IMG/VR virus record: IMGVR_UViG_3300017911_000967 | Coordinates: 32,942 to 96,941 of that record | From: a virus | Taxonomy: Duplodnaviria > Caudoviricetes | DNA: 64,000 bases | Strand: one strand, 5' to 3' | Part shown: piece after piece, positions 7,601 to 36,723 of the stretch | Position numbering within the stretch: position 1 is the first letter of the stretch | Layout of the letters: each line of letters begins with the position of its first letter | Made by a program: the position numbers and the translations under genes | Notes under the pieces: model-generated | What the model saw: only the letters and a program-made list of their open reading frames with translations | What the model was told of the DNA's origin: nothing | The model's database searches: none

Positions 7601-8786
7601 AGGTGTGACTGGCGACCAAGGCCCACAAGGTAGACAAGGTGCGACAGGTAATGTTGGACCACAGGGTGTCCAAGGACAACAGGGTCCACAGGGTCGCCAA
7701 GGTGCAACAGGTAATGTTGGACCACAAGGTGTTCAGGGACAACAGGGACCACAAGGCAGACAAGGTGCAACAGGTAATGTTGGACCACAGGGCGTACAAG
7801 GACAACAAGGTCCTCAAGGAAGACAGGGGGCGACAGGTAATGTTGGTCCTCAAGGTGTTCAGGGACAACAGGGTCCACAGGGTCGCCAAGGTGCAACTGG
7901 TAATGTTGGTCCTCAAGGTGTCCAAGGTCAACAAGGACCACAAGGTAGACAAGGTGCAACAGGTAATGTTGGACCACAAGGTGTCCAAGGTCAGCAAGGT
8001 CCTCAAGGAAGACAAGGTGCAACTGGTGTCACTGGTGCTCAAGGACAACAAGGTCAACAGGGTCCTCAAGGTAGACAGGGTGCCACTGGTGTCCAAGGTC
8101 AGCAGGGTCCACAAGGTAGACAGGGTGCCACTGGTGTCCAAGGTCAGCAGGGTCCACAAGGTAGACAGGGTGCCACTGGTGTCACTGGTGCACAAGGTGC
8201 TCAGGGACAACAGGGACCACAGGGTCGTCAAGGTGCAACTGGTGTCACTGGTGCTCAAGGTGCACAAGGTGCTCAGGGACAACAGGGACCACAGGGTCGT
8301 CAAGGTGCCACTGGACCAGATGGTGCGCAGGGACAACAGGGTCCTAGAGGTCGCCAAGGTAATCAAGGTCAACCAGGCCCAGACGGTCCTCAAGGTGCAA
8401 CAGGTGTTGCGGGTGTAACTGGTCAACAGGGTCCAGTCGGTGGATTCGGTAACGCAGTATTATTCAATACATCGACTTCGTTCCCATCGAATGTAAACGC
8501 AACAGCCTCCAGTGGAATTAAATCTTTCCGCACAGTTGATAAGATCTTTATCGGTGACGTTTGGTGGCACATCAATACGGGTCGAGTATTCAGATCAACA
8601 TCAAATGTGACTGGGTCAGGAAACGCTAACTTCACAGAGTTGACTAACAACCAAGGATTTGTTGATATGAGTGGTCTCCTAAATACAGGGACATCACCTA
8701 ATGAACGAATTGAGTTTTCGTCAACGTCTATAGACATTTATGATAACAGCAATAGTTTGAGGGTGAAGATCGGTAAGTTGAACTAA
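4638..8786 (+). CDS. Giant collagen-like fibre protein with gp9/gp10-like N-terminal baseplate anchor
   Basis: N-terminus [31 protein letters not shown] resembles the T4 gp9/gp10 N-terminus; ~389 Gly-X-Y triplets; C-terminal IYD...LRVKIGKL. Confidence 0.88.
4950..8456 (+). repeat. Gly-X-Y collagen repeat region ([18 protein letters not shown] blocks)
   Basis: Continuous triplets with only two single-residue interruptions (GTTP near 6434 and 6501). Confidence 0.95.
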
Positions 8787-20203: not shown

Positions 20204-20571
20204 TGTCTTACGGAATAGAAGTCTACAATTCAGAAGGCACAAAGATTGTAAGTCCTAATAGTAGTTTAGGGACCATTATTGCATATGGAAGGGTTCCGGC
20301 CGATCGATCGAGATATGAGGCAATTCTTGAGGGAAACCCAAATGCGGGTAATATAATGAATGGAAATGCGGTATACATATGGGGTGAGTTGGTAGATATC
20401 CCAGTTTTTGTCCCTAACTTTATAAACGATTCTTTACATGAAATAATCATCGTTTGTCCCTCTAACATCATTGTTGGAAATGGTTCAATTGTAAGTAAAT
20501 CAAATGGAAGTTTTGTTCTTAGAAGAAATGATAAATTCGATGCGGCTTGGTATGTAGTGAGGCGAGGATGA
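20203..20571 (+). CDS. Tail fibre-associated small protein (MSYGIE..N.G family)
   Basis: Start overlaps the fibre stop; MSYGIEVYNSEG N-terminus shared with the next gene. Confidence 0.65.
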   Translation: MSYGIEVYNSEGTKIVSPNSSLGTIIAYGRVPADRSRYEAILEGNPNAGNIMNGNAVYIWGELVDIPVFVPNFINDSLHEIIIVCPSNIIVGNGSIVSKSNGSFVLRRNDKFDAAWYVVRRG

Positions 20572-22004
20572 GTTACGGAATTGAAATAAGAAATTCTGAC
20601 GGTAATATTATTATCGAAGATGGTTTTAAAAACTTTCAAGTAGTTGCCTTCGGCACTACCAGTGCTGGTTCGGTTATACCATATGGAAATAATTTTTTGA
20701 CCGGAGGACTCATTTTCGGTAAACCTTCTGGTGTAAACCAAAATGATTTTTATGGATGGCATATTGCAGGAAATAGTACTACTGGAAATTTTGTCGGCGT
20801 CGGTCGTGGATCTGTAAACCTAGTTGATCCAGTTCAAGAAAGACCTAACCCATTTAGTGGAAATACAACTACTTATGATTATACAACAACTCCTATAACT
20901 CTACCTAATGTTGGTAAGATGGCACCCAGTGTAGATTGGGTATATGTGGAACCTTCGGCAACTTCACCCAATCCATCTGATTATGGATTAGAGGTTTATG
21001 CGGCCGACGGAACCGTATCGTACACTAGTACAGTAGAAAGCGAGTTTGATCTAACCTCCGTTGTAACTATTACTAACTTCGATCCACCATATTACGGACA
21101 GGATGATTTTCACGCTACTGGATTCTTCAGCGCAAGTGACTCAGCATTTAATTATTATATGTGTCTAAGTAATCTTGTTTCGTTTCCTGTTACTACAATT
21201 CCTGGCCAGTATGGATGGGTGAATTCTGGAAGATGGACGGCTGGTGGAATAACATTTTACCAACCAACATGGAATATTGCGAACTTCACTAGTGTAGGAC
21301 AACAAATTCTTATAGGTAAATATGTAGGAACTTCTTCTGGCGCTGAATCTGGCGGAAACGAAACAGAGACACCGAATCTTGCGCCAACTTATATTTCTGG
21401 GGTTGCATCCTCTTATACATTAAATACTAATGGTACCACAATCACTCCGATTTTCAGTGATCCTGAAGGTGGTCAAATAACCATTACTTTTTACACTTCT
21501 GGAACTTTAGGTGGAGCATCAATTGAACTAATCAATAATGGAACACAGATTAGAATAGTTCCAGGCGATAACGATGCAAGTTTTTCTCTAACTATAGTTG
21601 GAAGTGATGGGACTCAAGGAACATCAAGGGTTGCAGCAATTAACTATACCGTACCGGCGTCATCAAACAATCCGCCAGTGATTGCTACAAACAGTGTAAG
21701 CAGTTCTTACTCATTGCAGGGAACTTCTGCAACAACAACCATATCACCTCTTGTTATAGAACCAGATGGTGACTCTTATACTCTAAGCGCTTCTGTCACG
21801 GGAAGTAGTACAGGAATGTCTGTGACTGTGAATCAAAATAATACTATTACTGTATCATGGAATGGTGCTATGGTCGGTCTGTCATTCACACTAAATATAA
21901 CCGCAGTGGATCAAAACGGTGCGGTTAGCAGTCCAGTATCTACAATTATAATTTGGGAGTCGGGTGGAGGTTTTCCTCCCATAGATCCAGGCGGATTGTT
22001 CTAA
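20568..22004 (+). CDS. Putative fibre-tip/receptor-binding protein with two C-terminal Ig/cadherin-like repeats
   Basis: MSYGIEIRNSDG start at 20568; internal YGLEVYAADG; N.AP/NNPP...DPEG/EPDG...F.L.I...D repeats; AT-rich. Confidence 0.6.
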   Translation: MSYGIEIRNSDGNIIIEDGFKNFQVVAFGTTSAGSVIPYGNNFLTGGLIFGKPSGVNQNDFYGWHIAGNSTTGNFVGVGRGSVNLVDPVQERPNPFSGNTTTYDYTTTPITLPNVGKMAPSVDWVYVEPSATSPNPSDYGLEVYAADGTVSYTSTVESEFDLTSVVTITNFDPPYYGQDDFHATGFFSASDSAFNYYMCLSNLVSFPVTTIPGQYGWVNSGRWTAGGITFYQPTWNIANFTSVGQQILIGKYVGTSSGAESGGNETETPNLAPTYISGVASSYTLNTNGTTITPIFSDPEGGQITITFYTSGTLGGASIELINNGTQIRIVPGDNDASFSLTIVGSDGTQGTSRVAAINYTVPASSNNPPVIATNSVSSSYSLQGTSATTTISPLVIEPDGDSYTLSASVTGSSTGMSVTVNQNNTITVSWNGAMVGLSFTLNITAVDQNGAVSSPVSTIIIWESGGGFPPIDPGGLF

Positions 22005-22038: not shown

Positions 22039-22491
22039 ATGAAAATTTTGGCATATGTAGATCAAGGAACAGGACAGATAGTCTCAGTATCTAGCGTCTC
22101 AGTTAGTGCCCCTAGTCATGAAGATGGAAATATAGTAGATGGTTTCCTTGTTAAAGATATTAGTTTCGCAGGAACTTCTTGGCAAACTTTCGGAAAAGAT
22201 CATTGGTGGGACGGTGGAGAATGGGTAGAAAGGGGCGAACAACCAACCCAATATCATTCATGGTTAAATGGTGAGTGGGTGTTTGTTCAATCTTCATTTG
22301 AAACCTCAGTAAGAAACATTAGAGATCAACTACTTCAACAGTCGGACTGGACTCAGATTCCAGACGCCCCACTATCGACAGATATGAAGAACGCATGGGC
22401 GGGATACCGTCAAGAGTTGCGTGATATTACTTCAAACTTAGAAGGTTTGACTAGTTTAGAAGACGTAAACTGGCCAGAACCACCACAGTAA
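22039..22491 (+). CDS. Tail fibre assembly chaperone
   Basis: C-terminal VRNIRDQLLQQSDWTQIPDAPL...WAGYRQELRDIT...VNWPEPP. Confidence 0.85.
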   Translation: MKILAYVDQGTGQIVSVSSVSVSAPSHEDGNIVDGFLVKDISFAGTSWQTFGKDHWWDGGEWVERGEQPTQYHSWLNGEWVFVQSSFETSVRNIRDQLLQQSDWTQIPDAPLSTDMKNAWAGYRQELRDITSNLEGLTSLEDVNWPEPPQ

Positions 22492-22610: not shown

Positions 22611-25600
22611 GTGTCAGCATCTAGTATACCACTAAAAATTCAAAATGCTAATGGTGACCTACAAGAATTCACTCCATCGGACGAATTATTTCTTTCGTAT
22701 GCAGTGGGACAAGCATTAGTTGCGGCCGCATCTAATGACGTTGGTAATATCAGTTTGACTGAAGGCCAATCAATCGGTTCATTTGTAGATTCTTACTACA
22801 ATGAAATATCTGGCACCCACCCTGCTTCACAGATCACGGGTGCCTCAGTGACCACCACTCTGAAGCAAGTGAGTGGCCCAGCAGATGAATCCGGTGCAGA
22901 CTTTGTCCGTCCAGTAGGTTATTACGACGTTGATCCAAACCCAGGCTTCTACGAAATGGTAGACGGGGACTTGGACAACCTAGCAGGTCGTGTTCTGTCT
23001 AACTTAGTACAGAACGACTATATCGGTACTTTCAAACTGTCCGCTACCCAACCAAGTGCAGACTATACAAAGTTCATTGACTCTGTATTCTCCGACACTC
23101 ACGGTAATGGTGCAGGTGGTACCGTAGTAACAAACTACCACATTTGGATGCGTACTTCTATGACGGCGGTTGCTCCAGTTCGTCCAGTAGCGACAAGCTA
23201 CGACGGTTCTGGTTTCAACGGTCTACGTGAAATGACAGATGCCCAGATCCAGTACACACTAGGTCAACGCATCAAGTCACTTCGTGCTACTTCCGGAGCG
23301 ATTGGTTCATACCAACTACGTTCAACAGCACAGGGCGCACCAACAGTCCCAGGCACATGGGTGTCTGTAGGCACTGCACAGAACACACGTCGTACACCAG
23401 TTGACGTTGCATACGCAAGAACTCGCGTATCTTCATACAACCGTGCACGTGTTTCTGCATACACTCGTACTCGTACATCTTCATATACGCGTAACAGTGT
23501 CAGTACATTTACTCGCACATTCGTAGGAAACTACGTCGGTGCATATTCACGTGACTTTGTAGGCAACTACTCACGTGACTTTGTTGGGAACTACTCACGT
23601 ACTCGCCCATCATCGTACTCAGGTACATACGCACGTACTCGCGTATCATCGTATTCACGTACTCGCCTAACTGCGTTTACTGGATACTTCGCGGGAACTT
23701 ACTCACGTGCTCGTGTTTCGGTTTACACTCGTAACCGCGTCACACCATTCACTGGTACATTCTCACGTAACCGTACTTCATCGTACACTCGTGGCCGTGT
23801 ATCATCTTACGTAGGCACTTACGCTCGCACACGTGTATCTTCATACTCAGCAGATTACACACGTAACCGTGTATCAACATATTCAGGAACTTATGCGGGA
23901 ACATACTCCCGTCTACGTGTTTCTGCGTATGCTGGAACATACACGCGCAACCGTGTTTCTTCTTATGCTGGAACATACACACGCACACGCGTATCTGCAT
24001 ATGCGACAGACTTTACCCGCGTCCGTGAACAGAACTTCGCAGGGACTTACACTGGTTACTATACTGGCGTATTCTCTCGTGCTCGTGTATCAACTTATAC
24101 GCGTAACCGTGTAACAGGTTTCGCAGGTAACTTCATCGGAAACTACTCTCGCAACTTCCAAGGTAACTATTCACGTAACTTCGTGGGTAACTACTCTCGT
24201 GGATTTGCTGGTAACTTCGTAGGTAACTACTCTCGCGTATCAACACGTACATCAACTCGCACACGTTACAGTGCTTACGCTCGTACACGCATCACTAACT
24301 ACGTTGGTGACTTTGCTCGTGATCGCGTCACTAACTTTGCGGGTAACTTCGTAGGAAACTACGCTCGCACCTTCGTAGGTAACTACGGTGGTAACTATAT
24401 CGGAAACTACGCTCGTGACTTCGTTGGAAACTACGTTGGTAACTACGCTCGTGCATATGTAGGTAACTACTCTCGCGGATTCGTAGGTAACTACGGTCGT
24501 AACTTCCTTGGAAACTTTGTCGGCAACTACAGCCGCAACTTCCTTGGTGACTTCGTCGGAAACTACGCTCGTGGTTTCGTCGGCGACTTCGTTGGAAATT
24601 TCGTAGGTAACTATGCACGTACTTCAACTCGTACATCTACTCGTACTCGTTACAGTGCATACGCTCGTACTCGTGCGACAAACTATACAAGAACTCGTGG
24701 TTCTTCTTACGCTCGTACTCGTGTCACTAACTACGTTGGTAACTTCACGCGCACATCTACTCGTAGCAGACCATCTACGTTCTCTTACGCACGTACTCTA
24801 TACTACGCAGGTGACTTCGTAGGTAACTATGGTCGTACTCGCGTAACAAACTACACTCGTGCTTCAGCGGTAGGTGTAACCTATACAGGTAACTACACAC
24901 GTAACCTATACTACGTCGGTAACTATGCCCGTGCATTCGCAGGAGATTTCGTAGGTAACTATGCTCGTAACCGTGCGTTCTCATACGTAGGTAACTACGC
25001 TCGTAACCGTGCGTTCTCATACGCAGGTAACTACTCACGTACTCGTGTAACAAACTTTGCAGGGAACTTCGTAGGCAACTACGCTCGTAACTTTGTGGGT
25101 AATTATAGTCGACAAGCGGGATTCTCTCGTAACTATGCTGGTAACTATTCTCGTAACTTTACTCGGGCCCGTTCGTTCTCATTCGCAGGTAACTACACAC
25201 GTACTGTTACATCAACTCGAACTTCTACTGGTACCACATGGGTCAATTTGCCAAACGGATCGACAGGCCCTACCAGCGCTGGCCATACTTACATTTACTA
25301 TAATGAAGATAGAGATCGATGGATCGGTAAGATAAATGGTCAGTGGTTATACTCGAACTATTCCGGAAATAGATTCTACTACTTTGGTTCGACGCCAGGA
25401 GCTATCGGAACAACGTTCTCGACAGTAGCTTATAACGGGTCTCCGGCCGGATTCTGGCGAGTAGGTGTTTCCTATTATGATACGAACGATGATAGAGATT
25501 ATCACTATATTCAGCAACAAAGCACGAATTCCTACACCGGAAACTTTGTAGGTAACTTAACATACACGCGCACCCGTGCTGGTACCTATACTGGTAACTA

Positions 25601-27419
25601 CTCTCGCGCATATGTACGTTGGCGCAGTCAACAATATACACGTACTCAGAACTATTCAAGAACTCGAGCTGCGGCTTACACACGTGATCGAGTCACTAAC
25701 TTCGCAGGTAACTTCGGTGGTACGTATACGCGTACTCGTGCTGGTAACTACACTGGTAACTACGCACGTACTCGTGCTGGTAACTACACTGGTAACTACG
25801 CTCGCACGTCAACACGTACACGTTACTCTGCATACGCAAGAACTCGCGTTGCGACAGGTACTTACACGCGTAACCGCGCTGCGACACTATACTACACTGG
25901 TGACTTTGTAGGTAACTTCGCAGGTGCATACACACGCACATCAACACGTACATCTACTAGGCCTGGTTACTACACACGTACACTAACTTACGCAGGTAAC
26001 TACGTAGGTAACTATACGACAACGTTCACTGGCGACTTCGTCGGTAACTATGCGCGTAACTTTGTGGGTGACTATGTTGGTAACTTCGTAGGTAACTATG
26101 CGCGTGGATTTGCTGGTAACTTTGCTGGTAACTTTGTAGGTGAATATGCACGTACTCGTGTAACGAACTACACTCGTACTCGTAACTCTGCGTACACACG
26201 TAACCGCACACAGAACTTTGCGAACTCTTACGCTCGCACACGTGAAACAAACTTCACTGGTTACTACACACGCAACCGTGCATCCGCATACGCTCGTACT
26301 CGTTACAGCGCATACGCTCGCACACGTGTAACTAACTACGTAGGTGACTTCACACGCGATTCAACCCGCACATCTACTCGTAACCGTGTTCCGACATACA
26401 CTCGTGATCGTGTAACTAACTTCGCTGGTAACTTCGTAGGAAACTACGCAACAACGTTTACCGGAGACTTCGTTGGTAACTACGCACGTGGATTTGCTGG
26501 TGAATATGCTGGTAACTTTACTGGTAACTATGCTCGTACTTCAACGCGCACTCGTTACTCTGCATACGCACGTACTCGTGTATCTGCATACGTCCGCAAC
26601 CGTGGATCATCATACACCCGTGACCGTGTAACTAACTTTGCTGGTGACTTCGTAGGTAACTACGCTCGCACCTTCTCTGGTCAGTACACACGTCAGTTCG
26701 TTGGTGAGTATGTTGGTGATTACGTAGGAACGTTCGCAGGTAACTACGTTGGTAACTTCACTCGTGGATTCGGTGGAAACTACGTCGGTAACTATGCACG
26801 TGGATTTGCTGGTAACTACGTAGGAAACTATAACCGTAGTTTCTTAGGTGAGTACACTGGTGCTTACTCTGGTACTTACTCTCGTGGATTTGCGGGTAAC
26901 TATGTAGGTAACTACAACCGTGGGTTCGTTGGTGAGTACACTGGCGCTTACAACCGTACATTCACAGGTAACTACTCTCGTGACTTCTCCGGTCAGTACA
27001 CACGCGACTTTGCTGGTGACTTCGTAGGTAACTACAGTCGTCAGTTCGCAGGTGAGTACACTGGTGCTTATGCGCGTGACTTCGTAGGTAACTTCGTGGG
27101 TAACTACAACCGTGGTTTCGTTGGTGAGTACACTGGTGCTTACTCTCGTGACTTCGTAGGTAACTACTCTCGTGTCCGTGTATCTGCATACGCACGTATC
27201 AGAACGTCTTCTTACTCAGGAGCATACACACGTGACCGTGTTTCTTCTTACGTAGGTGACTTTACTGGTAACTATACTCGTAACTTTGGTGGTAACTACA
27301 CCCGTGACTTTGCTGGAAACTACGCACGTAGCTTCGTCGGTAACTACATCGGTGCAACCATCTCTGATACACAGACCCACGTTACTGATACATATACATT
27401 ATATGTAAGGGTTGCATAA
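22611..27419 (+). CDS. Giant tetrapeptide-repeat structural protein; predicted self-complementary antiparallel beta-hairpin fibre
   Basis: GTG start after a late promoter; ~270-aa base domain, arm 1 (res 269-872), ~100-aa tip, arm 2 (res 976-1579), short C-terminal strand; units xRxR, xSxY, xGNY, xRxF. Confidence 0.85.
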   Translation: MSASSIPLKIQNANGDLQEFTPSDELFLSYAVGQALVAAASNDVGNISLTEGQSIGSFVDSYYNEISGTHPASQITGASVTTTLKQVSGPADESGADFVRPVGYYDVDPNPGFYEMVDGDLDNLAGRVLSNLVQNDYIGTFKLSATQPSADYTKFIDSVFSDTHGNGAGGTVVTNYHIWMRTSMTAVAPVRPVATSYDGSGFNGLREMTDAQIQYTLGQRIKSLRATSGAIGSYQLRSTAQGAPTVPGTWVSVGTAQNTRRTPVDVAYARTRVSSYNRARVSAYTRTRTSSYTRNSVSTFTRTFVGNYVGAYSRDFVGNYSRDFVGNYSRTRPSSYSGTYARTRVSSYSRTRLTAFTGYFAGTYSRARVSVYTRNRVTPFTGTFSRNRTSSYTRGRVSSYVGTYARTRVSSYSADYTRNRVSTYSGTYAGTYSRLRVSAYAGTYTRNRVSSYAGTYTRTRVSAYATDFTRVREQNFAGTYTGYYTGVFSRARVSTYTRNRVTGFAGNFIGNYSRNFQGNYSRNFVGNYSRGFAGNFVGNYSRVSTRTSTRTRYSAYARTRITNYVGDFARDRVTNFAGNFVGNYARTFVGNYGGNYIGNYARDFVGNYVGNYARAYVGNYSRGFVGNYGRNFLGNFVGNYSRNFLGDFVGNYARGFVGDFVGNFVGNYARTSTRTSTRTRYSAYARTRATNYTRTRGSSYARTRVTNYVGNFTRTSTRSRPSTFSYARTLYYAGDFVGNYGRTRVTNYTRASAVGVTYTGNYTRNLYYVGNYARAFAGDFVGNYARNRAFSYVGNYARNRAFSYAGNYSRTRVTNFAGNFVGNYARNFVGNYSRQAGFSRNYAGNYSRNFTRARSFSFAGNYTRTVTSTRTSTGTTWVNLPNGSTGPTSAGHTYIYYNEDRDRWIGKINGQWLYSNYSGNRFYYFGSTPGAIGTTFSTVAYNGSPAGFWRVGVSYYDTNDDRDYHYIQQQSTNSYTGNFVGNLTYTRTRAGTYTGNYSRAYVRWRSQQYTRTQNYSRTRAAAYTRDRVTNFAGNFGGTYTRTRAGNYTGNYARTRAGNYTGNYARTSTRTRYSAYARTRVATGTYTRNRAATLYYTGDFVGNFAGAYTRTSTRTSTRPGYYTRTLTYAGNYVGNYTTTFTGDFVGNYARNFVGDYVGNFVGNYARGFAGNFAGNFVGEYARTRVTNYTRTRNSAYTRNRTQNFANSYARTRETNFTGYYTRNRASAYARTRYSAYARTRVTNYVGDFTRDSTRTSTRNRVPTYTRDRVTNFAGNFVGNYATTFTGDFVGNYARGFAGEYAGNFTGNYARTSTRTRYSAYARTRVSAYVRNRGSSYTRDRVTNFAGDFVGNYARTFSGQYTRQFVGEYVGDYVGTFAGNYVGNFTRGFGGNYVGNYARGFAGNYVGNYNRSFLGEYTGAYSGTYSRGFAGNYVGNYNRGFVGEYTGAYNRTFTGNYSRDFSGQYTRDFAGDFVGNYSRQFAGEYTGAYARDFVGNFVGNYNRGFVGEYTGAYSRDFVGNYSRVRVSAYARIRTSSYSGAYTRDRVSSYVGDFTGNYTRNFGGNYTRDFAGNYARSFVGNYIGATISDTQTHVTDTYTLYVRVA
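23415..25226 (+). repeat. Hairpin arm 1: 4-residue-period repeats
   Basis: ARTR VSSY NRAR VSAY ... VGNY ... TRTS; 604 codons. Confidence 0.9.
25536..27347 (+). repeat. Hairpin arm 2: 4-residue-period repeats complementary to arm 1
   Basis: TGNF VGNL ... ARSF VGNY; 604 codons. Confidence 0.9.
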
Positions 27420-27526: not shown

Positions 27527-27988
27527 ATGAGTTATAGACGTTGGATGGACAACGCTTTTTGGGAAACAGAAGAGAAGAAAGAACTAAACTGTATCCTAGA
27601 AATGGAAGATGATGTGGGTCGTGTCACCCGTCAACAGATGTTGTTGGCAAGACATGATCGTGATGGAAATCCTAACGAGTTGTTTGCGGAAGTCGTGGAC
27701 GCACTTGGTGAAGAGTTGATCGATAAGGAAACTACCGATCGAGTCGAACGCAAAGCTGCGGAGGCGGAAGAAGAGAAACAACGTGAGTTAGAACATCAAA
27801 AGGCAAGGAAGCTTGAGAAACTGTTCAACTACAAACTAGAAGCGTTTGAGGTTGAAGAGATCAAGAACTCTAAGAACCGCAAGTTGAAGGCAAAATTGCG
27901 TCGTGCAAAATCAAAGATTGAAGTAGATATGTACTCAATCATGATTCTACAAGACCAACTAGAGGCCGAGACAGATGGAAAAGAGTAA
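27527..27988 (+). CDS. Hypothetical acidic helical protein (candidate fibre chaperone)
   Basis: GGAG upstream, 153 aa, charged helical C-half; function inferred from position only. Confidence 0.6.
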   Translation: MSYRRWMDNAFWETEEKKELNCILEMEDDVGRVTRQQMLLARHDRDGNPNELFAEVVDALGEELIDKETTDRVERKAAEAEEEKQRELEHQKARKLEKLFNYKLEAFEVEEIKNSKNRKLKAKLRRAKSKIEVDMYSIMILQDQLEAETDGKE

Positions 27989-28712
27989 AGGGTTTATTAT
28001 CGTTGCGTCAAAGAAGCGCAACTTTTATTTGTACGCAATCAATCTTGCAGAGTCTCTCAGGGACTACTATGAACCAGAAGAGGAATGCAAGATCTGTTTG
28101 GTGACTGAGGAACGATTCCTTGATGACCGTGGTCGAGATGTCGCAGACGATATTCTCTTATGTGACGATCACTACCGCGCTAAGTTATGGGGTATGGCGA
28201 AATCGCCGTATGACCTAACGATGTATATCGATGCTGATATGGAAGTAGAACACGAAGACATCTGTAAAGTTTGGGATGAAATGAAGGACCATGATGTGGT
28301 CTTTACTGCTTTGACAGATGATCGTGACTACATATATGCAGAACGTGACTTTGACACTCCAGAGGGTGTTTCTAAGTTCACACTATGCGGTGCAGTATGT
28401 TTATATGATATGTCCAAACCGATTGTGCGTGAATTCATGAATGATTGGTGGGACTTGACATTCAGACAGATGAATGACACTTGGTGGCCAGACGGGTATG
28501 CGGACAGTCTCAAATCTTGGGACCAGTTCTCACTCTGGTGGTTGACTGAGAAAGAAGAAAAGTATAAGGATCTCAAAGTTGGAATCTTTGATGACGACTT
28601 GAGATGGAACTACTACAACGCACTTAATTGGGCAATAACAAAACCAGAAACAGGGCCAGTGATTATCCGTCACTTCTCTGCTGGTCTTAATAAGGATACA
28701 CCAATCGTATGA
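27975..28712 (+). CDS. GT-A glycosyltransferase (GT8-like/nucleotide-diphospho-sugar transferase)
   Basis: AINLAESLR, K...MAKSPYDLTMYIDAD (DxD), WDQFSL, RWN motifs. Confidence 0.78.
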   Translation: MEKSKGFIIVASKKRNFYLYAINLAESLRDYYEPEEECKICLVTEERFLDDRGRDVADDILLCDDHYRAKLWGMAKSPYDLTMYIDADMEVEHEDICKVWDEMKDHDVVFTALTDDRDYIYAERDFDTPEGVSKFTLCGAVCLYDMSKPIVREFMNDWWDLTFRQMNDTWWPDGYADSLKSWDQFSLWWLTEKEEKYKDLKVGIFDDDLRWNYYNALNWAITKPETGPVIIRHFSAGLNKDTPIV

Positions 28713-29416
28713 CACAGTTAAACGACCAATATCTAAAGCACGTCGAAGTTAAGAACCCTGAGTTGCTTGCGATTCTGGACAACTACGCTGGACTACCGAA
28801 GATTCCTGGCTTTGCAGAGAACTGTCACTGCACTTCTCAGGAACGTATTCGTCAGCGTAACTGGTACGTTGGACCAAAGTACATGCAAGAGATTGTAGAT
28901 GAGGGAACGCAACACGAAGGTTTCCCAGATGAGATGGTAGGTTATAACTTTAAACTATCAGATCGCGCTCACCAGATGTTCGAGTCAGATGCAGATCCAA
29001 TCTTCAAGCGTGACATGACGCACATGTTGTCAGATTTAAACGACAAGATGATGAACTTCCTGTCAGTCAAGCACAATGCGCTTGCAGCGGTATACCCGCC
29101 AGGCGGTTTCATTGCATGGCACAACAACGCTAACGCGCCAGGATTCAATCTAATCTTCTCTTACTCAGAGAGTGGTTCAGGTTGGTTCGACTACATCCAT
29201 CCGGAAACTAAAGAAGTTATCCGTTGTCAAGACAAGCCAGGTCAGTGGACTTGCAAGGCAGCATACTTCGGACACTACGGAGAAGAAGAGAAACTAATGT
29301 ATCACGCTGCATCTTCAGAAGATGATTGGCGCGTAACAGTTTCTTACGTCTTCGACTGGTCTGAGACTTCAGAAGAATTCCGTGAGATGGTCTTAGAAGA
29401 CATCGCTTCAGAATAA
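28709..29416 (+). CDS. 2OG-Fe(II) oxygenase-like (DSBH) protein, paralog of 51798-52442
   Basis: YPPGGFIAWHNN...MYHAA...RVTVSY. Confidence 0.7.
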   Translation: MTQLNDQYLKHVEVKNPELLAILDNYAGLPKIPGFAENCHCTSQERIRQRNWYVGPKYMQEIVDEGTQHEGFPDEMVGYNFKLSDRAHQMFESDADPIFKRDMTHMLSDLNDKMMNFLSVKHNALAAVYPPGGFIAWHNNANAPGFNLIFSYSESGSGWFDYIHPETKEVIRCQDKPGQWTCKAAYFGHYGEEEKLMYHAASSEDDWRVTVSYVFDWSETSEEFREMVLEDIASE

Positions 29417-29442
29417 AACAAAATATCTCGCACCCTAAGTTG

Positions 29443-29450
29443 TATAAATA
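29443..29450 (+). promoter_or_regulatory. T4-type late promoter TATAAATA
   Basis: Exact consensus. Confidence 0.8.
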
Positions 29451-29478
29451 GACACAGAACGTTTATACACTTAGGGTC

Positions 29479-29838
29479 TTGATGACTATGGCAACTTACG
29501 AAGACTTCACAATTGATCAGGGTGCAGACCTAGCTCTACAGATAGAGTTAGTGAATCCGGACGGATCTAAGAAAGATCTTACTGGTTATACTGCCTATGC
29601 GAAGATGAAGAAGACGTATAGAAGTGAGGAGTCAATAGACTTCACTGCCGTGATTCCCGATCCTTCACTCGAAGGTATCGTCACACTATCCCTTACTAAT
29701 TTACAAACCGACGCTCTATCCACTCGTGGTAGATATGTCTATGATGTTGAAATTGCTTTCGTCGATCATGAAGGTCACACCATTATAGAAAGAATACTAG
29801 AAGGTAAGATAAAAGTCAACCCTTCTGTCACGAGGTAA
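29479..29838 (+). CDS. Ig-like virion protein (BppU N-terminal-like)
   Basis: IDQGAD...DLTGYTAYAKMKK...GIVTLSLT..QT..L..GRYVYDVEI...RILEGKIKVNPSVTR; true start may be ATG 29488. Confidence 0.75.
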   Translation: MMTMATYEDFTIDQGADLALQIELVNPDGSKKDLTGYTAYAKMKKTYRSEESIDFTAVIPDPSLEGIVTLSLTNLQTDALSTRGRYVYDVEIAFVDHEGHTIIERILEGKIKVNPSVTR

Positions 29839-29842
29839 CGAC

Positions 29843-30724
29843 ATGCCGATAAGAAGAATAGGTGGAACAACAGGCGTAGCATCCATAAGTGGTTTTGGTT
29901 CTGGAACCAAAGTCAAACGTGTTACTGTCGGTAGACCTATCAGTAATGTCGTACAGAATATCGGTGCGAACATCAAGACGTTTGATGGACTTGGTGATAT
30001 TCCCAGTATTGAAGAGTTAAAACTGGGCGAGATCGGTATAAATACTCAAGACGGCAAACTCTATATCAAACGTGAGTATGATGGTGGAGTTCAAACCATT
30101 GTGGAGATTGGCGCGGTAGGTGAAGGAAATCTATCTGCGACAACCACGTTCAACGCATACATCTATACCTCTGACGGAACACTAGAGGTTATTACGGGTG
30201 CAGACGATAAGGGAAACATACTACAGTATGACCCAGATCCGAATACACCATCTCGAATTCAAGTATATCTCAACGGTGTCTTACTCCACCAAGGAATGGA
30301 CTACGTTGCTGATGATGGGGTTTCAATAACCCTAACCCACGTAGTAGACGAAGAGCAAGTTATCCAAGTCGCTGCGTATAACTCAACAGGCGTTTCTTTT
30401 GGAAACGACTTAATCCTAGATGATCATTTTGCCTTTGTTGTAGGCACAAATGAAGAAACCCGACTCTATCATAATGGAACCGACACCGTCCTTAAACACT
30501 TGGGATTCAACGAAAGTCGGTTCAAGATTCAATATGAGAATGATGATAGATTAGTTATGAACGCTTCAGGTGTTCAGTTAAAGGGAAACTACACCCTCAA
30601 CGGACAACCCGTTGCAAGCCAAGTAGAAGTAGATGCTCTTAATGCTCGAATCGATGGTCTCGATTCTGACTTACAGGAAGTGACTGAACTACTACAAGAA
30701 CTACTTCAGTTCCGACAATCATAA
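29843..30724 (+). CDS. Virion fibre/adaptor protein
   Basis: LKLGEIGINTQDGKLYIK (Mtd-N-like), IQVYLNGVLL..G.DY domain, C-terminal coiled coil. Confidence 0.65.
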   Translation: MPIRRIGGTTGVASISGFGSGTKVKRVTVGRPISNVVQNIGANIKTFDGLGDIPSIEELKLGEIGINTQDGKLYIKREYDGGVQTIVEIGAVGEGNLSATTTFNAYIYTSDGTLEVITGADDKGNILQYDPDPNTPSRIQVYLNGVLLHQGMDYVADDGVSITLTHVVDEEQVIQVAAYNSTGVSFGNDLILDDHFAFVVGTNEETRLYHNGTDTVLKHLGFNESRFKIQYENDDRLVMNASGVQLKGNYTLNGQPVASQVEVDALNARIDGLDSDLQEVTELLQELLQFRQS

Positions 30725-30753
30725 AAATAAAGTGTGGTTGAACTCGTTTTTAG

Positions 30754-30761
30754 TATAAATA
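30754..30761 (+). promoter_or_regulatory. T4-type late promoter TATAAATA
   Basis: Exact consensus. Confidence 0.8.
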
Positions 30762-30797
30762 AAAACAGTATATTAACTACCCTTAGTACTCCAAGAT

Positions 30798-31157
30798 ATG
30801 ATCAATAATAAGTCCTTTAACAGGGTACTTGCCGAAAGTCTGTTCAATCTGGCTAAAAAGAAGCAGGAAGAAGTTTCCTCTACTCCAGGCCAAGAAAAGA
30901 TTTTATTCGAACTTATCGAAGGTACCTCATCATCAACAAATGATCGTACTGTCATTCCCGAAGCACAGGCGTTCATTGCTCCAGGCGACACCGCCCTATT
31001 CACATTGAACGGAACTCCGGCACGTGATGACTTAATTGATGTATGGGTTAATGATGTACTTCAACATCCTGAAGAAGTATATGAAACCATCGGAGATACT
31101 ATTCAATTTTATGAGATCCCCCCTCAAGGGACGGACATCTACATTAAATTTCGTTAG
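30798..31157 (+). CDS. Small virion protein with V..N.VLQ.P...Y domain
   Basis: FTL...IDVWVNDVLQHPEEVY...IQF...P..G..I domain also seen in 29843 and at the C-terminus of 31213. Confidence 0.65.
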   Translation: MINNKSFNRVLAESLFNLAKKKQEEVSSTPGQEKILFELIEGTSSSTNDRTVIPEAQAFIAPGDTALFTLNGTPARDDLIDVWVNDVLQHPEEVYETIGDTIQFYEIPPQGTDIYIKFR

Positions 31158-31212: not shown

Positions 31213-34200
31213 ATGGCATTTAGGCAGATTAAATCCCCAGCATTAGCGGACAAGGCGGTAATCGATACCAAACTTGACGAAAGTGCGGTACAGGGACAAT
31301 CAACCCTTACAGGTATGACCGACCCATCATCGTGTTTTACACTTCTGTATGATGTAGCTTCGGACTCTCTAAAGAAGATCGGTGCTGATGCATTCTTCGC
31401 ATCATTCTCAACCGACGATCTAGCAGAAGGTTCAAATCTATACTACACCGCAGAACGTGCAAACGCTGATGTTGCTGCACAAATCGACGCAGATGTTCAA
31501 GTCGAAACAAATCGTGCGATAGCCGAAGAAGGTCGTATCGAATCAGAATCTAAGTCACGTGACAATAAGTTAGAAGGTCAAGATTCTGCATTAAGTAACC
31601 GTATCACAAACGAAGTAAATCGTGCGGAAAGTGTAGAAACTCGTATCGAAGACGAATCTAAGCAACGCGACAGCGCACTTGGTGTTCGTATCGACAACGT
31701 CCTAAACAACACGGACGAAGTTGCACTTAACTCTCTTGCAGAAATCGTTACTGCGTTCCAAAACGCAGATAGTGCACTTTCTGGTTCTATCATCCAGAAC
31801 GCTAATGATATCGTCGCAGAACGCGAACGTGCAGTTGCTCGTGAGAACCAGATCGAGACAGAATACCGTCTTGCAGATAGCGCACTAAGCGATCGTATCA
31901 TCGAGCGTAAGAACGCAACTGACAGTGATTTCACTCACTTCACACTTGCTGATCAAAATCTACAAAACCAGATCACGTCTAACGATGGCGACATCGCTAC
32001 ATTGTTCGCACAGGATTCTGCTGAAACGCAACGCGCTTCAGATGAAGAATCTCGTATCGAACAAAAACTTAATGAAGAAATCGCACGTTCTAAGGGCGTT
32101 GACTCAGCTCACAGTGCACAGATCACCGCTGCTAACCAAGCACGTGTTGCAGACGACAACGTTGTTCGTTCAGAGTTCGCTGCTGCTGACCAAGTAATCA
32201 AAGCTCAAGTAGAAGCACGTGACGACGCACTTATCGGTGACGCAAGTGTTGACGGAACTTCTGGAAACACAATCACCGATCGTATCGCAACTGCAAAAGC
32301 AGAAGCAATCCTCGAAGGTAATGATGTTGTTGCATTCGAGAACCAACAACGTCGTAACGCAGATAGTGATCTACAAGCACAGATCGATGCAGAAGTTGCT
32401 CGCGCAACTGCAGCAGAAGACGCACTGGGCGATCGTATCGATTCAGACTACACTGCTAACTGGGCAGACCACGCGGCAATCCGTGAAGAGTTTGCTGCTG
32501 GTGACGCAAACCTACAGTCTCAGATCGACTTCATCACATCTAACACAGACTCCGCTGCACTAGATTCTCTAACAGAGATCGTTGCAGAAGTTGCTCGTGT
32601 AGATGGAACAGTAAACGCATTGATCCAGACTAACGTCGGTGACATCGAAGCAGAACGTCTAGCACGTATCGCTGCTGACAGTGCATTGAGTACTCGCATT
32701 GATATCGAAGTATCTACACGTCGTGCTGGTGACTCTGCAGCTAACAAGCGTATCGACGACGCAATTCTAGATTACATTGCTCGCGATTCAGATGTTCTAT
32801 CATCTGCAAAAGCATACACAGATCAAGAAGCAGACGCACACCAAGCTGCTGGTGAAGAGTACACACGTCAGTATGTAACTCCACGCATCGGTGACGCAAC
32901 TGTCGACGGAACTGCTGGTAACACAATCACAAACCGCATCACCACTGCTAAGTCAGAAGCGATGACATACGCAGCGGGTCTAGATTCAGACGAACGCGCT
33001 CGTGCGACGACTGCTGAAGGTCTACTAAGTGGTCGCGTTGGTCACGTCGAAGGTCTACTAGACTCAGCGACATTCGAAACTGTTGCACAAACAGTTGTCC
33101 CAGCGATCAACGAACTACACGGTGATGCAGTATCATACGATCTACAATCGAAAGACCGCGACACTGCTCTTGGTCTTCGTATAGACCTACTAGAAGACGG
33201 AACTTCAATCGACGTTGAAGATCTAAATATTCGTCTTGGTATCGAAGAAGGTGTTCGTGAACGCGCTGACTCAGATCTACTTGCACGACTAATCGTTGAA
33301 GAGAACCGTTCTAAACTAGAAGACGGTCAACACGATTCGGACATTAGTGCTCTAGGTCTTGTCACTAGTGGTATCCGTGGTGATCTAACGATCGAAACCA
33401 CTACTCGTATCGACGAAGACACTATTTTACGTAACCGTATCGCTGCTGACAGTGATCGACTAACACTTCTAGATTCACAAGCTCACGTCCGTATGGATGT
33501 AATCTTGGCAGGAAGTGTAGCAAAAGATTCAGATCTACAATCACAGATCAACGCAGAAGTTGCTCGTTCAACCGCGAAAGATTCTTCACACGATTCTGAC
33601 ATCGCAGTACTATACAACCAAGTTGGTACAGATGTACAAGATCTACAGGATCAAATCGATGCCGAAATCGAACGTGCGACAGGTGTAGAGTCTAATCTAC
33701 AATCACAGATCACTTCAAACGATGGCGACATCACTGCACTACAAGCGAAAGATTCTGATCTACAAGCTCAGATCTCTTCAAACGACGCAGACATCTTTGC
33801 ACTACAAGCGAAAGATTCTAACCAGCACGCTACTGCAATGCAAGCGATCGCTGACGAAACACTTCGCGCTACTGGCATTGAAACTGGTCTACGTTCGGAT
33901 GTAGATAGTGCACACGCACGTATCGATCACATCCTAGACGGTTCTTCAACTGATCTAGATCAGATGCTAGAAATCGTCAACGCATTCCGTGACGCTGACA
34001 ATGACCTAGATGGTGTTATCACCAACAACACTGGTCGCATCACTACACTAGAGAATCGTGCAGACGAAACTGATGACGAACAGGTTATTCAGGATGGTCG
34101 ACTAACTTCACTAGAAGGTCGCATGACTGCGAACGAAGCTGTCGATTCAGATCAGTCAGTAACTCTTGGTGATCACGAATCTCGCATCACAGCGAACGAA

Positions 34201-36723
34201 ACTCGTATCGGTGATAAGTCACTTGTATTGAAGACTCCTTCACAGTCACTGTCTGAAGCAATCAACGATCTATACGACGACATCACAGCAGAAGGTACTT
34301 CTCTTGTTGGTGTAACTGATCGTGTTGAAGTTCTAGAAACTCGCGCTGATGCAGATTCAGACCTACAGGTTGTTCAAAATGCACGTCTAGATTCTGCTGA
34401 AGGTCGTTTGACTGTAAACGAAGGCGACATCGACGCACTAGAAACTAAGATGGGTACTGTTGCACTGGATACAACTGCACAAGCAGTACGTCCAGCAATC
34501 AACGAACTACACACTCAGATAGATAGCAACACTTCACGTGTTGGTGTCGTAGAGGGTCGTGCAGACGTAACTGATATCGAACAGGCTGCACAGGATGCAC
34601 GTCTAGATTCACTAGAATCAGATCGCGCATTCAACATCATCAAAGATACACAACAAGACACACGTCTTGATGGTCTAGAAAATCGTGTCGATATGGACAC
34701 AGTCTTCCAGACATCTGCAAACAAAGTTGTTCCAGCAATCAACGAACTGAAAGGTCGTCTTGATGCCGCTGATCAGTTTGCACAAGATGAGAAGGTGCGT
34801 CAAGATCAAGATTCTGATCGTCTAACGACAGAAATCGCTACTCGTGCGCAAGAAGACTCTGCACTTGAAGGTCGTCTAAACGGTCGTATCGATTCAGCAG
34901 AGAACAAGATCGCTGGGGACATCTCAGTATCTCTTGCAGAAGCAAAGGCATACACACGCGAATACGCAGATGACGCTGAGTCAGATGCACGTGCATATGC
35001 ACTTGGTTTGGTCTCTCAGGAGAACGAAGCACGTATTCTCAACCAGCAAGCTCAACGTCAGTTGATCGATGGTAACCACGAAATCGGCACACAGAGAGAT
35101 AACGCACAAGACCTACTAATCTCGGGTCTACAGTCAGAACTAGATGCAACTCAAGTGGGCGCTGGTCTAGGTCCAGATGGTGAATATCTAACTCCAGATT
35201 CTTCATCAACATACCTACAAGCAACTACTTCATTGATGAATGCGATCCTTACTCTTGATACTAACCTTGCGACAGTATCTGGTGTAAACAACAATGGTCG
35301 TAACAGTCTGCAACAACAGATCAACAATGAAATCACTGCTCGTCAGAACGGTGACTCAGATCTACTTGCACGTCTAATCGCTGAAGAAGTTTACACTAAG
35401 GCACAAGATTCTGCAATCAACGGTCGTATCGACAACACGAACACAGCACTTGCACGAGAAGTTGCTGATCGTCTAGCAGGTGATTCTGATCTACAAGCAC
35501 AGATCGACTTCATCACATCTAACACAGACTCTGCTGCACTAGATTCTCTAACAGAGATCGTTGCTGAGTTCCAACGTGTAGATGGTGGTCTATCTGGTCT
35601 AATTTCTGCTAACGCTGCAGAGATTGTCCGTGTAGAAGAGGAATCTAAGGAACGCGACTCTGACGAAGAAGCTGCACGTATCGCTGGTGACGCTGCTCTA
35701 CAAACTCAAGTAGACGCACGTGTCAAGAAGGCTGGGGACACAATGTCTGGTGACCTAGACATGACAGGTAACATGGTTACAGGTCTTGGTGTTCCAGTTG
35801 AAATGTCAGATGCGACAAACAAAGCATACACAGACGCACGTCTTGCTGAACAGCACATTTCGCAGTTCACTACAGACAGTCTAACTGAAGGAACACGACT
35901 ATACTTCACAGAGGCACGTGCTCGCGCGGCAGTCTCGGTGTTTGATGTAGACGGAGAAGGTGACGTTTCTTACGACGCTAACTCTGGTGTTATTTCAATC
36001 GCAACAGGTAAGAAGTTCGTAGAACTAGAAGATGTCGTAACATCTGAAATCACTGACAATATGGGCGGTTTCGTTGCTCGTGTCAAGACAGATGGTACAG
36101 GTATCGAACTAGTTCCACCAACACAACTAGCATTCAACGACGCTAAGCGCCAGACAATCAACGGTGACGGAATCGCGAGTACATTCTCACTAGATTTCTA
36201 CACTGCACAGATCAACGCTCTAGTATTCGTCGGTGGTGTTATTCAGGATCCGGGCGTACACTACACAATCAACTCAGGAACGCAAGAAATTACGTTCACA
36301 TCTGCGGTACCACTAGGTACACAGGCGGTAGTAATCGCACAGTCAACTAACTCAGTTGGTGTCCTAGATCCTAAGTCAGTAGGTGTTGAAACACTTGCAG
36401 ATAACCTAAAGGCATTCGAACACGGTCTAGACGTAGTTGCTGGTACTTCACCAACAGTCGTCTCTTCATTCGATCCAACAGTATATCGTTCTGCGAAGTA
36501 CGTTATCACTGTAGAACAGAACGGTGAGTTTGAGACTCGCGAGTGTATGGTTGTCCATGATGGAACAAGTGCTTACATTACCGAATACGGTATTGTCTTC
36601 ACAGGTTCTTCGTTACTAGGTGACACAGATGTACGTTTCATCAACAGCAATGTTGAACTAATGTACACTACTGAGTCTGGTGACGCAGTTGTTTCAGTTG
36701 CGGTAACTTACGTTAACGTATAA
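31213..36723 (+). CDS. Giant coiled-coil fibre protein (1836 aa), Asp-Ser rich
   Basis: Heptad E..RA...E/D..LQ.QI repeats, LDSLTEIV knots, DA.NK.Y.D motif, C-terminal YRSAKY.I....EYG domain. Confidence 0.8.
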   Translation: MAFRQIKSPALADKAVIDTKLDESAVQGQSTLTGMTDPSSCFTLLYDVASDSLKKIGADAFFASFSTDDLAEGSNLYYTAERANADVAAQIDADVQVETNRAIAEEGRIESESKSRDNKLEGQDSALSNRITNEVNRAESVETRIEDESKQRDSALGVRIDNVLNNTDEVALNSLAEIVTAFQNADSALSGSIIQNANDIVAERERAVARENQIETEYRLADSALSDRIIERKNATDSDFTHFTLADQNLQNQITSNDGDIATLFAQDSAETQRASDEESRIEQKLNEEIARSKGVDSAHSAQITAANQARVADDNVVRSEFAAADQVIKAQVEARDDALIGDASVDGTSGNTITDRIATAKAEAILEGNDVVAFENQQRRNADSDLQAQIDAEVARATAAEDALGDRIDSDYTANWADHAAIREEFAAGDANLQSQIDFITSNTDSAALDSLTEIVAEVARVDGTVNALIQTNVGDIEAERLARIAADSALSTRIDIEVSTRRAGDSAANKRIDDAILDYIARDSDVLSSAKAYTDQEADAHQAAGEEYTRQYVTPRIGDATVDGTAGNTITNRITTAKSEAMTYAAGLDSDERARATTAEGLLSGRVGHVEGLLDSATFETVAQTVVPAINELHGDAVSYDLQSKDRDTALGLRIDLLEDGTSIDVEDLNIRLGIEEGVRERADSDLLARLIVEENRSKLEDGQHDSDISALGLVTSGIRGDLTIETTTRIDEDTILRNRIAADSDRLTLLDSQAHVRMDVILAGSVAKDSDLQSQINAEVARSTAKDSSHDSDIAVLYNQVGTDVQDLQDQIDAEIERATGVESNLQSQITSNDGDITALQAKDSDLQAQISSNDADIFALQAKDSNQHATAMQAIADETLRATGIETGLRSDVDSAHARIDHILDGSSTDLDQMLEIVNAFRDADNDLDGVITNNTGRITTLENRADETDDEQVIQDGRLTSLEGRMTANEAVDSDQSVTLGDHESRITANETRIGDKSLVLKTPSQSLSEAINDLYDDITAEGTSLVGVTDRVEVLETRADADSDLQVVQNARLDSAEGRLTVNEGDIDALETKMGTVALDTTAQAVRPAINELHTQIDSNTSRVGVVEGRADVTDIEQAAQDARLDSLESDRAFNIIKDTQQDTRLDGLENRVDMDTVFQTSANKVVPAINELKGRLDAADQFAQDEKVRQDQDSDRLTTEIATRAQEDSALEGRLNGRIDSAENKIAGDISVSLAEAKAYTREYADDAESDARAYALGLVSQENEARILNQQAQRQLIDGNHEIGTQRDNAQDLLISGLQSELDATQVGAGLGPDGEYLTPDSSSTYLQATTSLMNAILTLDTNLATVSGVNNNGRNSLQQQINNEITARQNGDSDLLARLIAEEVYTKAQDSAINGRIDNTNTALAREVADRLAGDSDLQAQIDFITSNTDSAALDSLTEIVAEFQRVDGGLSGLISANAAEIVRVEEESKERDSDEEAARIAGDAALQTQVDARVKKAGDTMSGDLDMTGNMVTGLGVPVEMSDATNKAYTDARLAEQHISQFTTDSLTEGTRLYFTEARARAAVSVFDVDGEGDVSYDANSGVISIATGKKFVELEDVVTSEITDNMGGFVARVKTDGTGIELVPPTQLAFNDAKRQTINGDGIASTFSLDFYTAQINALVFVGGVIQDPGVHYTINSGTQEITFTSAVPLGTQAVVIAQSTNSVGVLDPKSVGVETLADNLKAFEHGLDVVAGTSPTVVSSFDPTVYRSAKYVITVEQNGEFETRECMVVHDGTSAYITEYGIVFTGSSLLGDTDVRFINSNVELMYTTESGDAVVSVAVTYVNV

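Follow-up and report, generated by a model that had tools for sequence, protein, structure and literature searches.

Mirror-placed phase breaks and paired length changes in the repeat arms of a putative fold-back tail fibre from a marine T4-like myovirus

How can a protein with two very long repeat arms change its length when the arms appear to be matched to each other along their course? The question is raised by a tail-fibre gene in the 64,000-nucleotide (nt) stretch of viral DNA analysed here (the window), which is part (positions 32,942 to 96,941) of the 96.9-kb IMG/VR virus record IMGVR_UViG_3300017911_000967. The gene is an open reading frame (ORF) at 22611-27419 on the plus strand (4809 nt, 1602 amino acids (aa), GTG start). 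Its product consists of an N-terminal domain, two arms of tetrapeptide units with a non-repetitive tip between them, and a short C-terminal tail (Table 1). The units of both arms have Gly, Arg, Ser or Thr as their second residue and end in Tyr, Phe or Arg, and an 8-residue super-period (xGxY xRxF) is frequent. The arm composition (23415-27359) includes 170 Arg and no Lys, His or Cys, while acidic residues are found mostly in Gly-rich blocks (12 in arm 1 and 27 in arm 2). The original prediction for this gene held that two-residue shifts of the tetrapeptide phase lie in mirror order in the two arms, and that any expansion of one arm must be matched in the other. Our analysis suggests that the protein is probably a fold-back fibre, with arms that pair antiparallel and in register and a length that evolves by mirrored insertions and deletions (indels) and by the swap of a distal cassette.

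Mirror-placed breaks and residue complementarity between the arms

The translation of 22611-27419 was parsed by aromatic phase and, separately, by tetrapeptide units. Both parses reproduced exactly the predicted list of six breaks per arm. In arm 1, the breaks are at aa 725 (SY), 731 (YY), 757 (TY), 767 (YY), 837 (GF), and 867 (TS), separated by 1, 6, 2, 17, and 7 units. Those of arm 2 are at aa 984 (TY), 1014 (NY), 1084 (TY), 1094 (YY), 1120 (YY), and 1126 (TY), separated by 7, 17, 2, 6, and 1 units, so that i+j=1852 for all six mirror pairs. The region to which the prediction had been assigned, 24771-25991, corresponds to aa 721-1127 and is exactly the break zone. Recounting also gave the same unit numbers outside the breaks, with 114 units proximal to them in arm 1 (aa 269-724), and 113 units plus IGAT, i.e. 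114, after the last break of arm 2 (aa 1128-1583). Each arm has 33 units from its first break to its last, and one in 66,045 compositions of that number is the exact mirror. Of the arm-1 breaks, the outermost (TS 867) is set by Arg spacing and contains no aromatic residue, and a few units have a non-canonical fourth residue (S, V, L, A, G, or Q).

The number of breaks differs among relatives, yet they remain mirrored, with five per arm in contigs L008 and L014, seven per arm in L015, and three per arm in L026. Excursions of a single unit escape a Viterbi phase parser with a fixed penalty, and the break lists of L017, L020, and L030 are therefore incomplete. Phase lock was 0.83-0.92 in all homologues tested except L035 (0.54).

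Residue complementarity provides evidence beyond break spacing. All antiparallel registers i+j=S were scanned for arm 1 against arm 2. Arg-Arg (R:R) pairs are absent at S=1849 (0/600) and nearly absent at S=1847 (1/600). At the other offsets (152 per phase class), the mean R:R count was 21.6 (standard deviation (sd) 6.3) and 25.1 (sd 4.6) in the two classes, and none fell below about 8. In 20,000 shuffles of the arm-2 units, the mean was 15.2 and the minimum 4; Arg faced an aromatic residue or Gly in 126 cases, compared to 83 (sd 6) in the same shuffles. When eight homologues were pooled (5362 pairs), every arm-1 Arg had an aromatic (500) or Gly (277) partner and none had another (777/777), G:G pairs numbered 0 against 74 expected, and aromatic:aromatic pairs 9 against 210 expected. 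On the other face, the pooled table places Val/Ala opposite Val/Ala and Asn opposite Asn. At a larger scale, Arg-rich blocks of one arm lie opposite Gly-rich blocks of the other, and in the distant homologue P0003 the block types are swapped between the arms. The code supports antiparallel pairing in a register 3-5 residues off the unit-level axis. The mirror order is real, but the physical register is about one unit away from the axis of the original prediction; since the code register is 1849/1847 and the break axis 1852, the mirror breaks are staggered by 3-5 residues and do not face each other exactly.

A search with the N-domain identified 37 viral contigs, and the N-domain family comprises at least 325 clusters at 50% identity (E<=1e-3). 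Its members share a conserved N-domain of about 265 aa and a C-tail motif like YTLYVRVA, which was found in 59 of the best 150 clusters, with a variable insert of about 40 to more than 2000 aa in between. Complete homologues have 1163-2282 aa, and the form from Phage C48C1 has 3347 aa. Every complete Arg-rich homologue has one register, with 0-2 R:R pairs over 420-980 pairs, and the proximal, middle, and distal thirds of the arms independently give the same register in 17 of 19 sequences, and in 16 of 18 when distinct complete homologues of 1163-2282 aa are counted. When protein length is subtracted from the register, the complete homologues give 244-248, except L022 (268), and this near constancy indicates that pairing at the arm bases is always at one and the same position. 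For Arg-poor family members, a cruder big/small pairing score over the first 100 arm residues gave no register, nor did it for the window protein.

Some family members depart from this layout. L038 and L039 (10001-10927) encode 309-aa homologues with the N-domain and C-tail and no repeat arms, which represent the minimal family form. P0002 (1798 aa, cut by the contig end) is C48C1-like and has about 650 aa inserted inside the N-domain before its last repeat; the insert contains a LamG-like domain (PF13385) and a repeat block (PF14312).

Structure prediction was useful for the base of the arms only. An AlphaFold2 (AF2) model of aa 641-1208 of the window protein, based on a 17-sequence alignment, had a predicted local distance difference test score (pLDDT) of 31 and was unusable. 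The 436-aa homologue P0042 was modelled with a pLDDT of 72.8 (above 90 in the N-domain and 89-97 in the last 17 residues). In this model, the N-domain consists of three beta-beta-alpha-beta-beta-beta repeats, the C-tail packs with the N-domain of the same chain, and long strands (260-293 and 399-434) occupy the place where repeats 1 and 2 have short hairpins. The giant hairpin thus resembles a lengthened version of the last hairpin in the base domain, a point in favour of intrachain pairing. A Foldseek search of the model against PDB and BFVD returned nothing at E<=0.001. VIA-align gave beta-prism-like matches (MABP and the MACPF C-terminal domain; root-mean-square deviation 3.3-3.8 over 112-124 residues) with Z scores of 5.8-6.0, below the noise level of that tool (Z 7-8).

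Paired indels and exchange of the distal cassette

Comparison with relatives bears on the claim that the arms must change length together. Relative to the window, five close relatives have two additional 28-aa segments, one of Arg type at aa 673 and one of Gly type at aa 1167 (mirror position 1176). Both segments are tandem duplications, and in each arm the copies are 80% identical in DNA. Compared to the 88-91% nt identity between the window and these relatives, this value indicates that the two duplications are similar in age and older than the split. As the duplications predate the split, the window and L015 have evidently lost one copy per arm. More distant comparisons revealed further equal changes at mirror positions, of 16+16, 28+28, 8/8, 12/12, 28/28, 20/20, 16/16, and 18/18 aa, as well as pairs in which the change is split unequally (120+56 versus 176, and 20+44 versus 64). 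The co-occurrence of paired changes that had been proposed as a check is thus seen in relatives (equal indels of 28+28, 16+16, and 176 versus 176 at mirror positions), and the claim of joint length change stands with one exception, an unpaired 24-aa deletion in L022 that is described below.

The arms are also rich in short tandem repeats. A 36-nt tandem at aa 780-810 in arm 1 is mirrored by another at aa 1041-1064 in arm 2 (Table 1), and two more period-36 arrays in the window are roughly mirror-placed.

A second mode of change is found at the distal end. In the five relatives, DNA homology (88-91%) ends at aa 815 and returns at aa 1030-1031, and the block replaced in L015 lies between aa 804 and 1044; each of these two pairs of boundaries adds up to about 1846-1849. 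Among close relatives, the N-domain is 95% identical, and most proximal shells of the arms exceed 90% (range 82-100%). Further out, identity drops symmetrically in the two arms, to 40-75% over the last 40-80 residues of each, and in the tip it is 21-28%. The identities of mirror shells in arm 1 and arm 2 are correlated (r=0.85-0.93). With 88-91% nt identity against 93-100% aa identity in most proximal shells, purifying selection is evident. As the distal end of arm 1, the tip, and the start of arm 2 would form a closed hairpin, they could be swapped in one recombination event with the proximal pairing undisturbed. The hypervariable tip is likely the receptor-binding module.

The C48C1 homologue (WJE88074, 3347 aa, at L002:612-10655) has five globular domains of about 140-245 aa, all in the return arm, and an exact internal duplication of about 75 aa, in which aa ~2050-2124 repeats the following segment. 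Its arm 1 has about 1029 aa, and the repeat segments of its return arm sum to 1074 aa (1034 without the duplicated piece). Pairing is at S=2666 over the distal 420 residues and at length+246 for the base, while in the proximal, highly periodic part local-window pairing is ambiguous. Because the arm lengths match despite five globular inserts, bulges appear to be tolerated.

The original prediction described an evolutionary puzzle, in that one arm has to follow the other although the DNA is not an inverted repeat. A search of the DNA indeed found no meaningful inverted repeat. The puzzle is less deep than it appeared, as the arms are slippage-prone tandem DNA, bulges appear to be tolerated (in C48C1 and L022), and nested cassettes are exchanged; duplication of the facing segment automatically supplies a complementary partner. 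A plausible answer is therefore a combination of mirrored tandem duplications or deletions with nested cassette exchange.

The proposed fibre, its alternatives and its precedents

In the proposed fibre, the N-domain and the 19-aa C-tail would together form one base domain. The chain would leave the last beta-hairpin of this domain, run out as an arm of about 600 residues, form the tip of about 107 aa, and return as a second arm of about 600 residues. The two arms would pair as antiparallel beta strands over their whole length at i+j=1849, and register 1847 would also be constrained, as expected of diagonal contacts. The face formed by unit positions 2 and 4 would follow a strict size and charge code, with Arg opposite Tyr/Phe or Gly, and Tyr/Phe opposite Gly, Ser/Thr or Arg; R:R and G:G pairs would never occur, and aromatic:aromatic pairs almost never. 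On the opposite face, Val/Ala would meet Val/Ala and Asn would meet Asn. A two-residue break would shift the tetrapeptide phase by half a period, and breaks would be mirror-placed because the code is kept only when the facing strand changes phase at that rung too. Length would change by tandem duplication or deletion mirrored in both arms, or by the swap of a contiguous distal cassette (arm end, tip, and arm start) at mirror breakpoints. The mirror breaks, the pairing code, the constant register, the paired indels, the cassette breakpoints, and the base model support this proposal directly. We infer from it the beta-ribbon geometry, a length of about 200 nm, the role of the tip in receptor binding, and pairing within rather than between chains.

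In one form of this proposal, which we put forward tentatively and with some doubt, a single polypeptide would make one two-stranded beta ribbon about 200 nm in length, estimated from 600 residues of about 0.33 nm, with no hydrophobic core and an Arg/Tyr/Gly cross-strand code that works like base pairing. Such a ribbon would exceed 300 nm in L017 and C48C1. It would constitute a natural, evolvable, register-addressable protein zipper, in which length is tuned by mirrored slippage and bulged globular domains are tolerated.

Several points weigh against the fold-back proposal or limit it. The deletion in L022 removes 24 aa of arm 2 (at aa 1439 of L020) with no counterpart in arm 1, and the ORF remains intact. 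L022 is otherwise 99.9% identical to L020, the deletion lies inside a 36-nt x 5.4 tandem array, and the paired form of the segment is present in five other contigs; the deletion could reflect a collapsed assembly or a recent variant due to slippage. In the distant relative L035, the distal third has no clear register. The breaks have their axis at 1852, 3-5 residues away from the code register (1849/1847). The AF2 model of the arm segment was unusable, and covariation by itself would fit antiparallel pairing within a chain and between chains alike. Finally, the ribbon may be single or bundled, for example as a trimer.

The ambiguity between chains leads to a head-to-tail dimer, in which arm 1 of one chain pairs with arm 2 of another, so that each end would have a base domain and the two tips would lie in mid-fibre. 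Although the constant i+j, the pairing code, and the paired indels would be met equally well in this way, we regard such a dimer as very unlikely. The P0042 model puts the C-tail in the base domain of its own chain and starts the arms where repeats 1 and 2 have ordinary intrachain hairpins. Armless 309-aa forms exist, a hypervariable tip in a swappable cassette with mirror boundaries suits a distal end rather than the middle of a fibre, and a phage fibre requires one attachment end. It is still harder to believe that the arms do not touch, and that their mirror pattern comes from a third ruler or template to which each is matched, or from repeat homogenisation. Both arms are tandem-repeat DNA, and nothing else specifically favours this view. 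Homogenisation would yield arms that are alike, whereas these are complementary rather than similar and obey a strict residue code at a single register; there is no inverted repeat in the DNA, and the block types are swapped between the arms in P0003. Chance or a parsing artefact as the source of the mirror spacing was rejected as virtually impossible. Despite the non-canonical units and the weakly defined outermost break, the odds of one in 66,045, the failure of all 20,000 shuffles to reach the observed absence of R:R pairs, and the mirrored breaks of relatives with other break numbers (5/5, 5/5, 7/7, and 3/3) all argue against it.

A different question is how many fold-back chains make up the fibre. 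Three of them could form a six-stranded antiparallel needle as in distal T4 gp37, with registers 1849 and 1847 as the intrachain and interchain interfaces, and we consider this possible, if less than probable. Phage fibres are typically trimers, and the gp37 needle is six-stranded with an end head domain (PMC9659904). The two neighbouring registers are both nearly free of R:R pairs, and the small Val, Ala, Asn, and Thr residues of the other face could line a narrow core. However, two such registers are also expected from direct and diagonal neighbours in a plain two-stranded ribbon. In the P0042 model, the base domain is a single chain of three repeats, apparently pseudo-threefold itself, and so need not trimerise, and the lack of His in the arms means that there is no metal ladder of the gp37 type.

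By analogy, the closest structural precedent for the fold-back fibre is the gp37 needle. In the gp37 account of PMC9659904, which refers to Bartual et al. 2010, the T4 gp37 tip is a six-stranded antiparallel beta needle with a distal head domain, and the last 215 residues hold the whole receptor-binding part. The likeness lies in a chain that runs out to a distal head and back with antiparallel N-side and C-side strands, here deduced from sequence and the base model, and in a distal part that is the variable, host-specific module. The differences are considerable. The arms have about 600 residues each, compared to at most about 100 per chain in the gp37 needle, and the fold-back would span the whole shaft down to the base domain. 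The gp37 needle contains iron coordinated by His. Its His-x-His metal motifs have no counterpart in the His-free arms, gp37 has no tetrapeptide code, and Pfam, PHROG, and PDB-sequence searches with the whole protein or the arms found no sequence or profile similarity.

For mirror-paired indels, the closest evolutionary precedent, again as an analogy, is the cytoplasmic hairpin of chemoreceptors (methyl-accepting chemotaxis proteins), for which PMC5907407, in its treatment of the heptad classes of Alexander and Zhulin, describes symmetric indels. Length variants arise there, as here (L022 excepted), by equal mirror indels in both arms, with lengths of 8-176 aa in the fibre. Chemoreceptors are alpha-helical coiled coils with a 7-residue unit and a role in signalling, whereas the fibre would consist of beta strands with a 4-residue unit in a virion, and its arms are complementary in composition (Arg-rich versus Gly-rich) beyond being equal in length. 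A helical heptad pattern was not found in them: the period is 4, the faces alternate, Gly recurs every 4th-8th residue, and AF2 places strands at the arm bases.

Other systems share single features. The G5-E repeats of SasG and the central sheet of OspA are single-layer beta-sheet rods without a hydrophobic core. Like them, the fibre would be a thin, elongated, beta-only rod, possibly monomeric, with cross-strand side-chain ladders instead of a buried core. Unlike this giant two-stranded hairpin, those rods are built of serial small domains or three-stranded sheets; a Pfam search of the fibre protein gave no G5 match, and we know of no pairing code or mirror indels described for them. The C-terminal triple beta-helix of T4 gp5 consists of octapeptide VxGxxxxx repeats in parallel strands of three intertwined chains with no return arm. 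It resembles the fibre in being a short-period, Gly-containing beta repeat in a T4-type virion protein, and the super-period here also has 8 residues. Antiparallel complementarity and paired indels are not expected in the gp5 fold, and a triple beta-helix of this type does not fit, as there was no Pfam (Gp5_C) match and the complementarity is antiparallel. Conceptually, RNA stem-loops share a linear antiparallel pairing code, compensatory changes, tolerated bulges, and a variable loop. In a protein, the code would lie in the size and charge of the side chains along one face of a beta ladder, and one arm is not templated from the other.

If the model holds, the fibre represents a previously undescribed phage-fibre architecture, and as far as we know no longer intrachain beta-hairpin has been proposed for a natural protein. 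Compensatory mirror indels would then act on beta structure as well, beyond RNA stems and helical hairpins. The pairing rules (Arg opposite aromatic or Gly, never R:R or G:G) can be read straight from sequence. They could supply design rules for long, thin, length-programmable protein rods, and fibre length and the receptor-binding cassette might be predicted from sequence in uncultured phages. The base domain is common to the at least 325 clusters (50% identity), while the Arg-rich pairing code is shown in the close subfamily only. The arms, for which structure prediction failed here, also make a demanding test for such programs.

Genome setting and other features

The window contains T4-like myovirus genes for gp6-like and gp8-like baseplate wedge proteins, sheath, portal, a gp23-like capsid protein, and terminase. 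The closest named genome is Phage C48C1 (Kyanoviridae), with a capsid identity of 77%, followed by Pelagibacter and Methylophilales phages at about 61%. The fibre gene belongs to a marine T4-like myovirus. It is located within a tail-fibre gene cluster, directly 3' of a tail-fibre assembly chaperone gene (PF16778), and the chaperone probably serves the preceding fibre. The start position is common to the fibre genes of relatives, with GTG or ATG as the start codon.

Table 1. Positions in the window of the fibre gene, its parts and the adjoining chaperone gene
Feature	Position	Strand	Remarks
Whole fibre gene	22611..27419	+	1602 aa
N-terminal base domain, aa 1-268	22611..23414	+	family of at least 325 clusters at 50% identity
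Arm 1, aa 269-868	23415..25214	+	147 tetrapeptide units and six 2-residue breaks
Non-repetitive tip domain, aa 869-975 (~107 aa)	25215..25535	+	from unit parse and relatives' identity
Arm 2, aa 976-1583	25536..27359	+	149 units and six 2-residue breaks
C-terminal 19-aa tail, aa 1584-1602	27360..27416	+	conserved across the family
Arm-1 break zone	24783..25214	+	from phase and unit parses
Arm-1 breaks	24783-24788, 24801-24806, 24879-24884, 24909-24914, 25119-25124, 25209-25214	+	
Arm-2 break zone	25560..25991	+	from phase and unit parses
Arm-2 breaks	25560-25565, 25650-25655, 25860-25865, 25890-25895, 25968-25973, 25986-25991	+	
Arm-1 site of second 28-aa copy, aa 673	24627..24629	+	L003, L004, L008, L011, L014
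Arm-2 site of second 28-aa copy, aa 1167	26109..26111	+	L003, L004, L008, L011, L014
36-nt tandem in arm 1, aa 780-810	24950..25041	+	2.6 copies, 92% matches
36-nt tandem in arm 2, aa 1041-1064, mirror of aa 780-810	25731..25801	+	2.0 copies, 100% matches
Exchangeable distal cassette, aa 816-1030	25056..25700	+	no DNA homology to five close relatives; breakpoint sum 1846
Tail-fibre assembly chaperone	22039..22491	+	PF16778; upstream of the fibre gene, context only

The whole fibre protein had no match in Pfam, PHROGs, or NCBIfam, and PDB sequence searches with the N-domain, the tip, and arm 1 gave none. The ESM Atlas returned unnamed viral clusters only, and megablast of the gene against phage records found no match. 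Literature searches on tetrapeptide-repeat or beta-ribbon tail fibres and on phage C48C1 turned up nothing relevant.

Upstream of the fibre gene, the chaperone is 32-96% identical in close relatives, compared to 94-96% for the fibre N-domain, and a 485-aa gene at 20547-22004 is often absent from them. As these upstream genes are poorly conserved while the N-domain is constant, the upstream fibre module seems to be exchanged independently. Downstream, six small genes (27527-31157; 153, 245, 235, 119, 293, and 119 aa, the second with a weak GT2-like match) keep their order in nearly all relatives, at 51-100% identity (with one 45% match, in L035). None of the six could be assigned to a family with confidence, and an NCBIfam search of the fibre-gene neighbours was empty. 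Weak relatives (29-31%) of two of these genes lie beside the 309-aa genes of L038 and L039.

Elsewhere in the window, a collagen-like fibre gene at 4638-8786 (1382 aa) differs in GC content (0.57) from the remainder (about 0.45) and matched dozens of PHROGs for collagen-like tail fibres. Two giant ORFs at 31213-36723 (1836 aa) and 36797-39583 (928 aa), with no Pfam match and a marginal PHROG match only, are probably further fibres.

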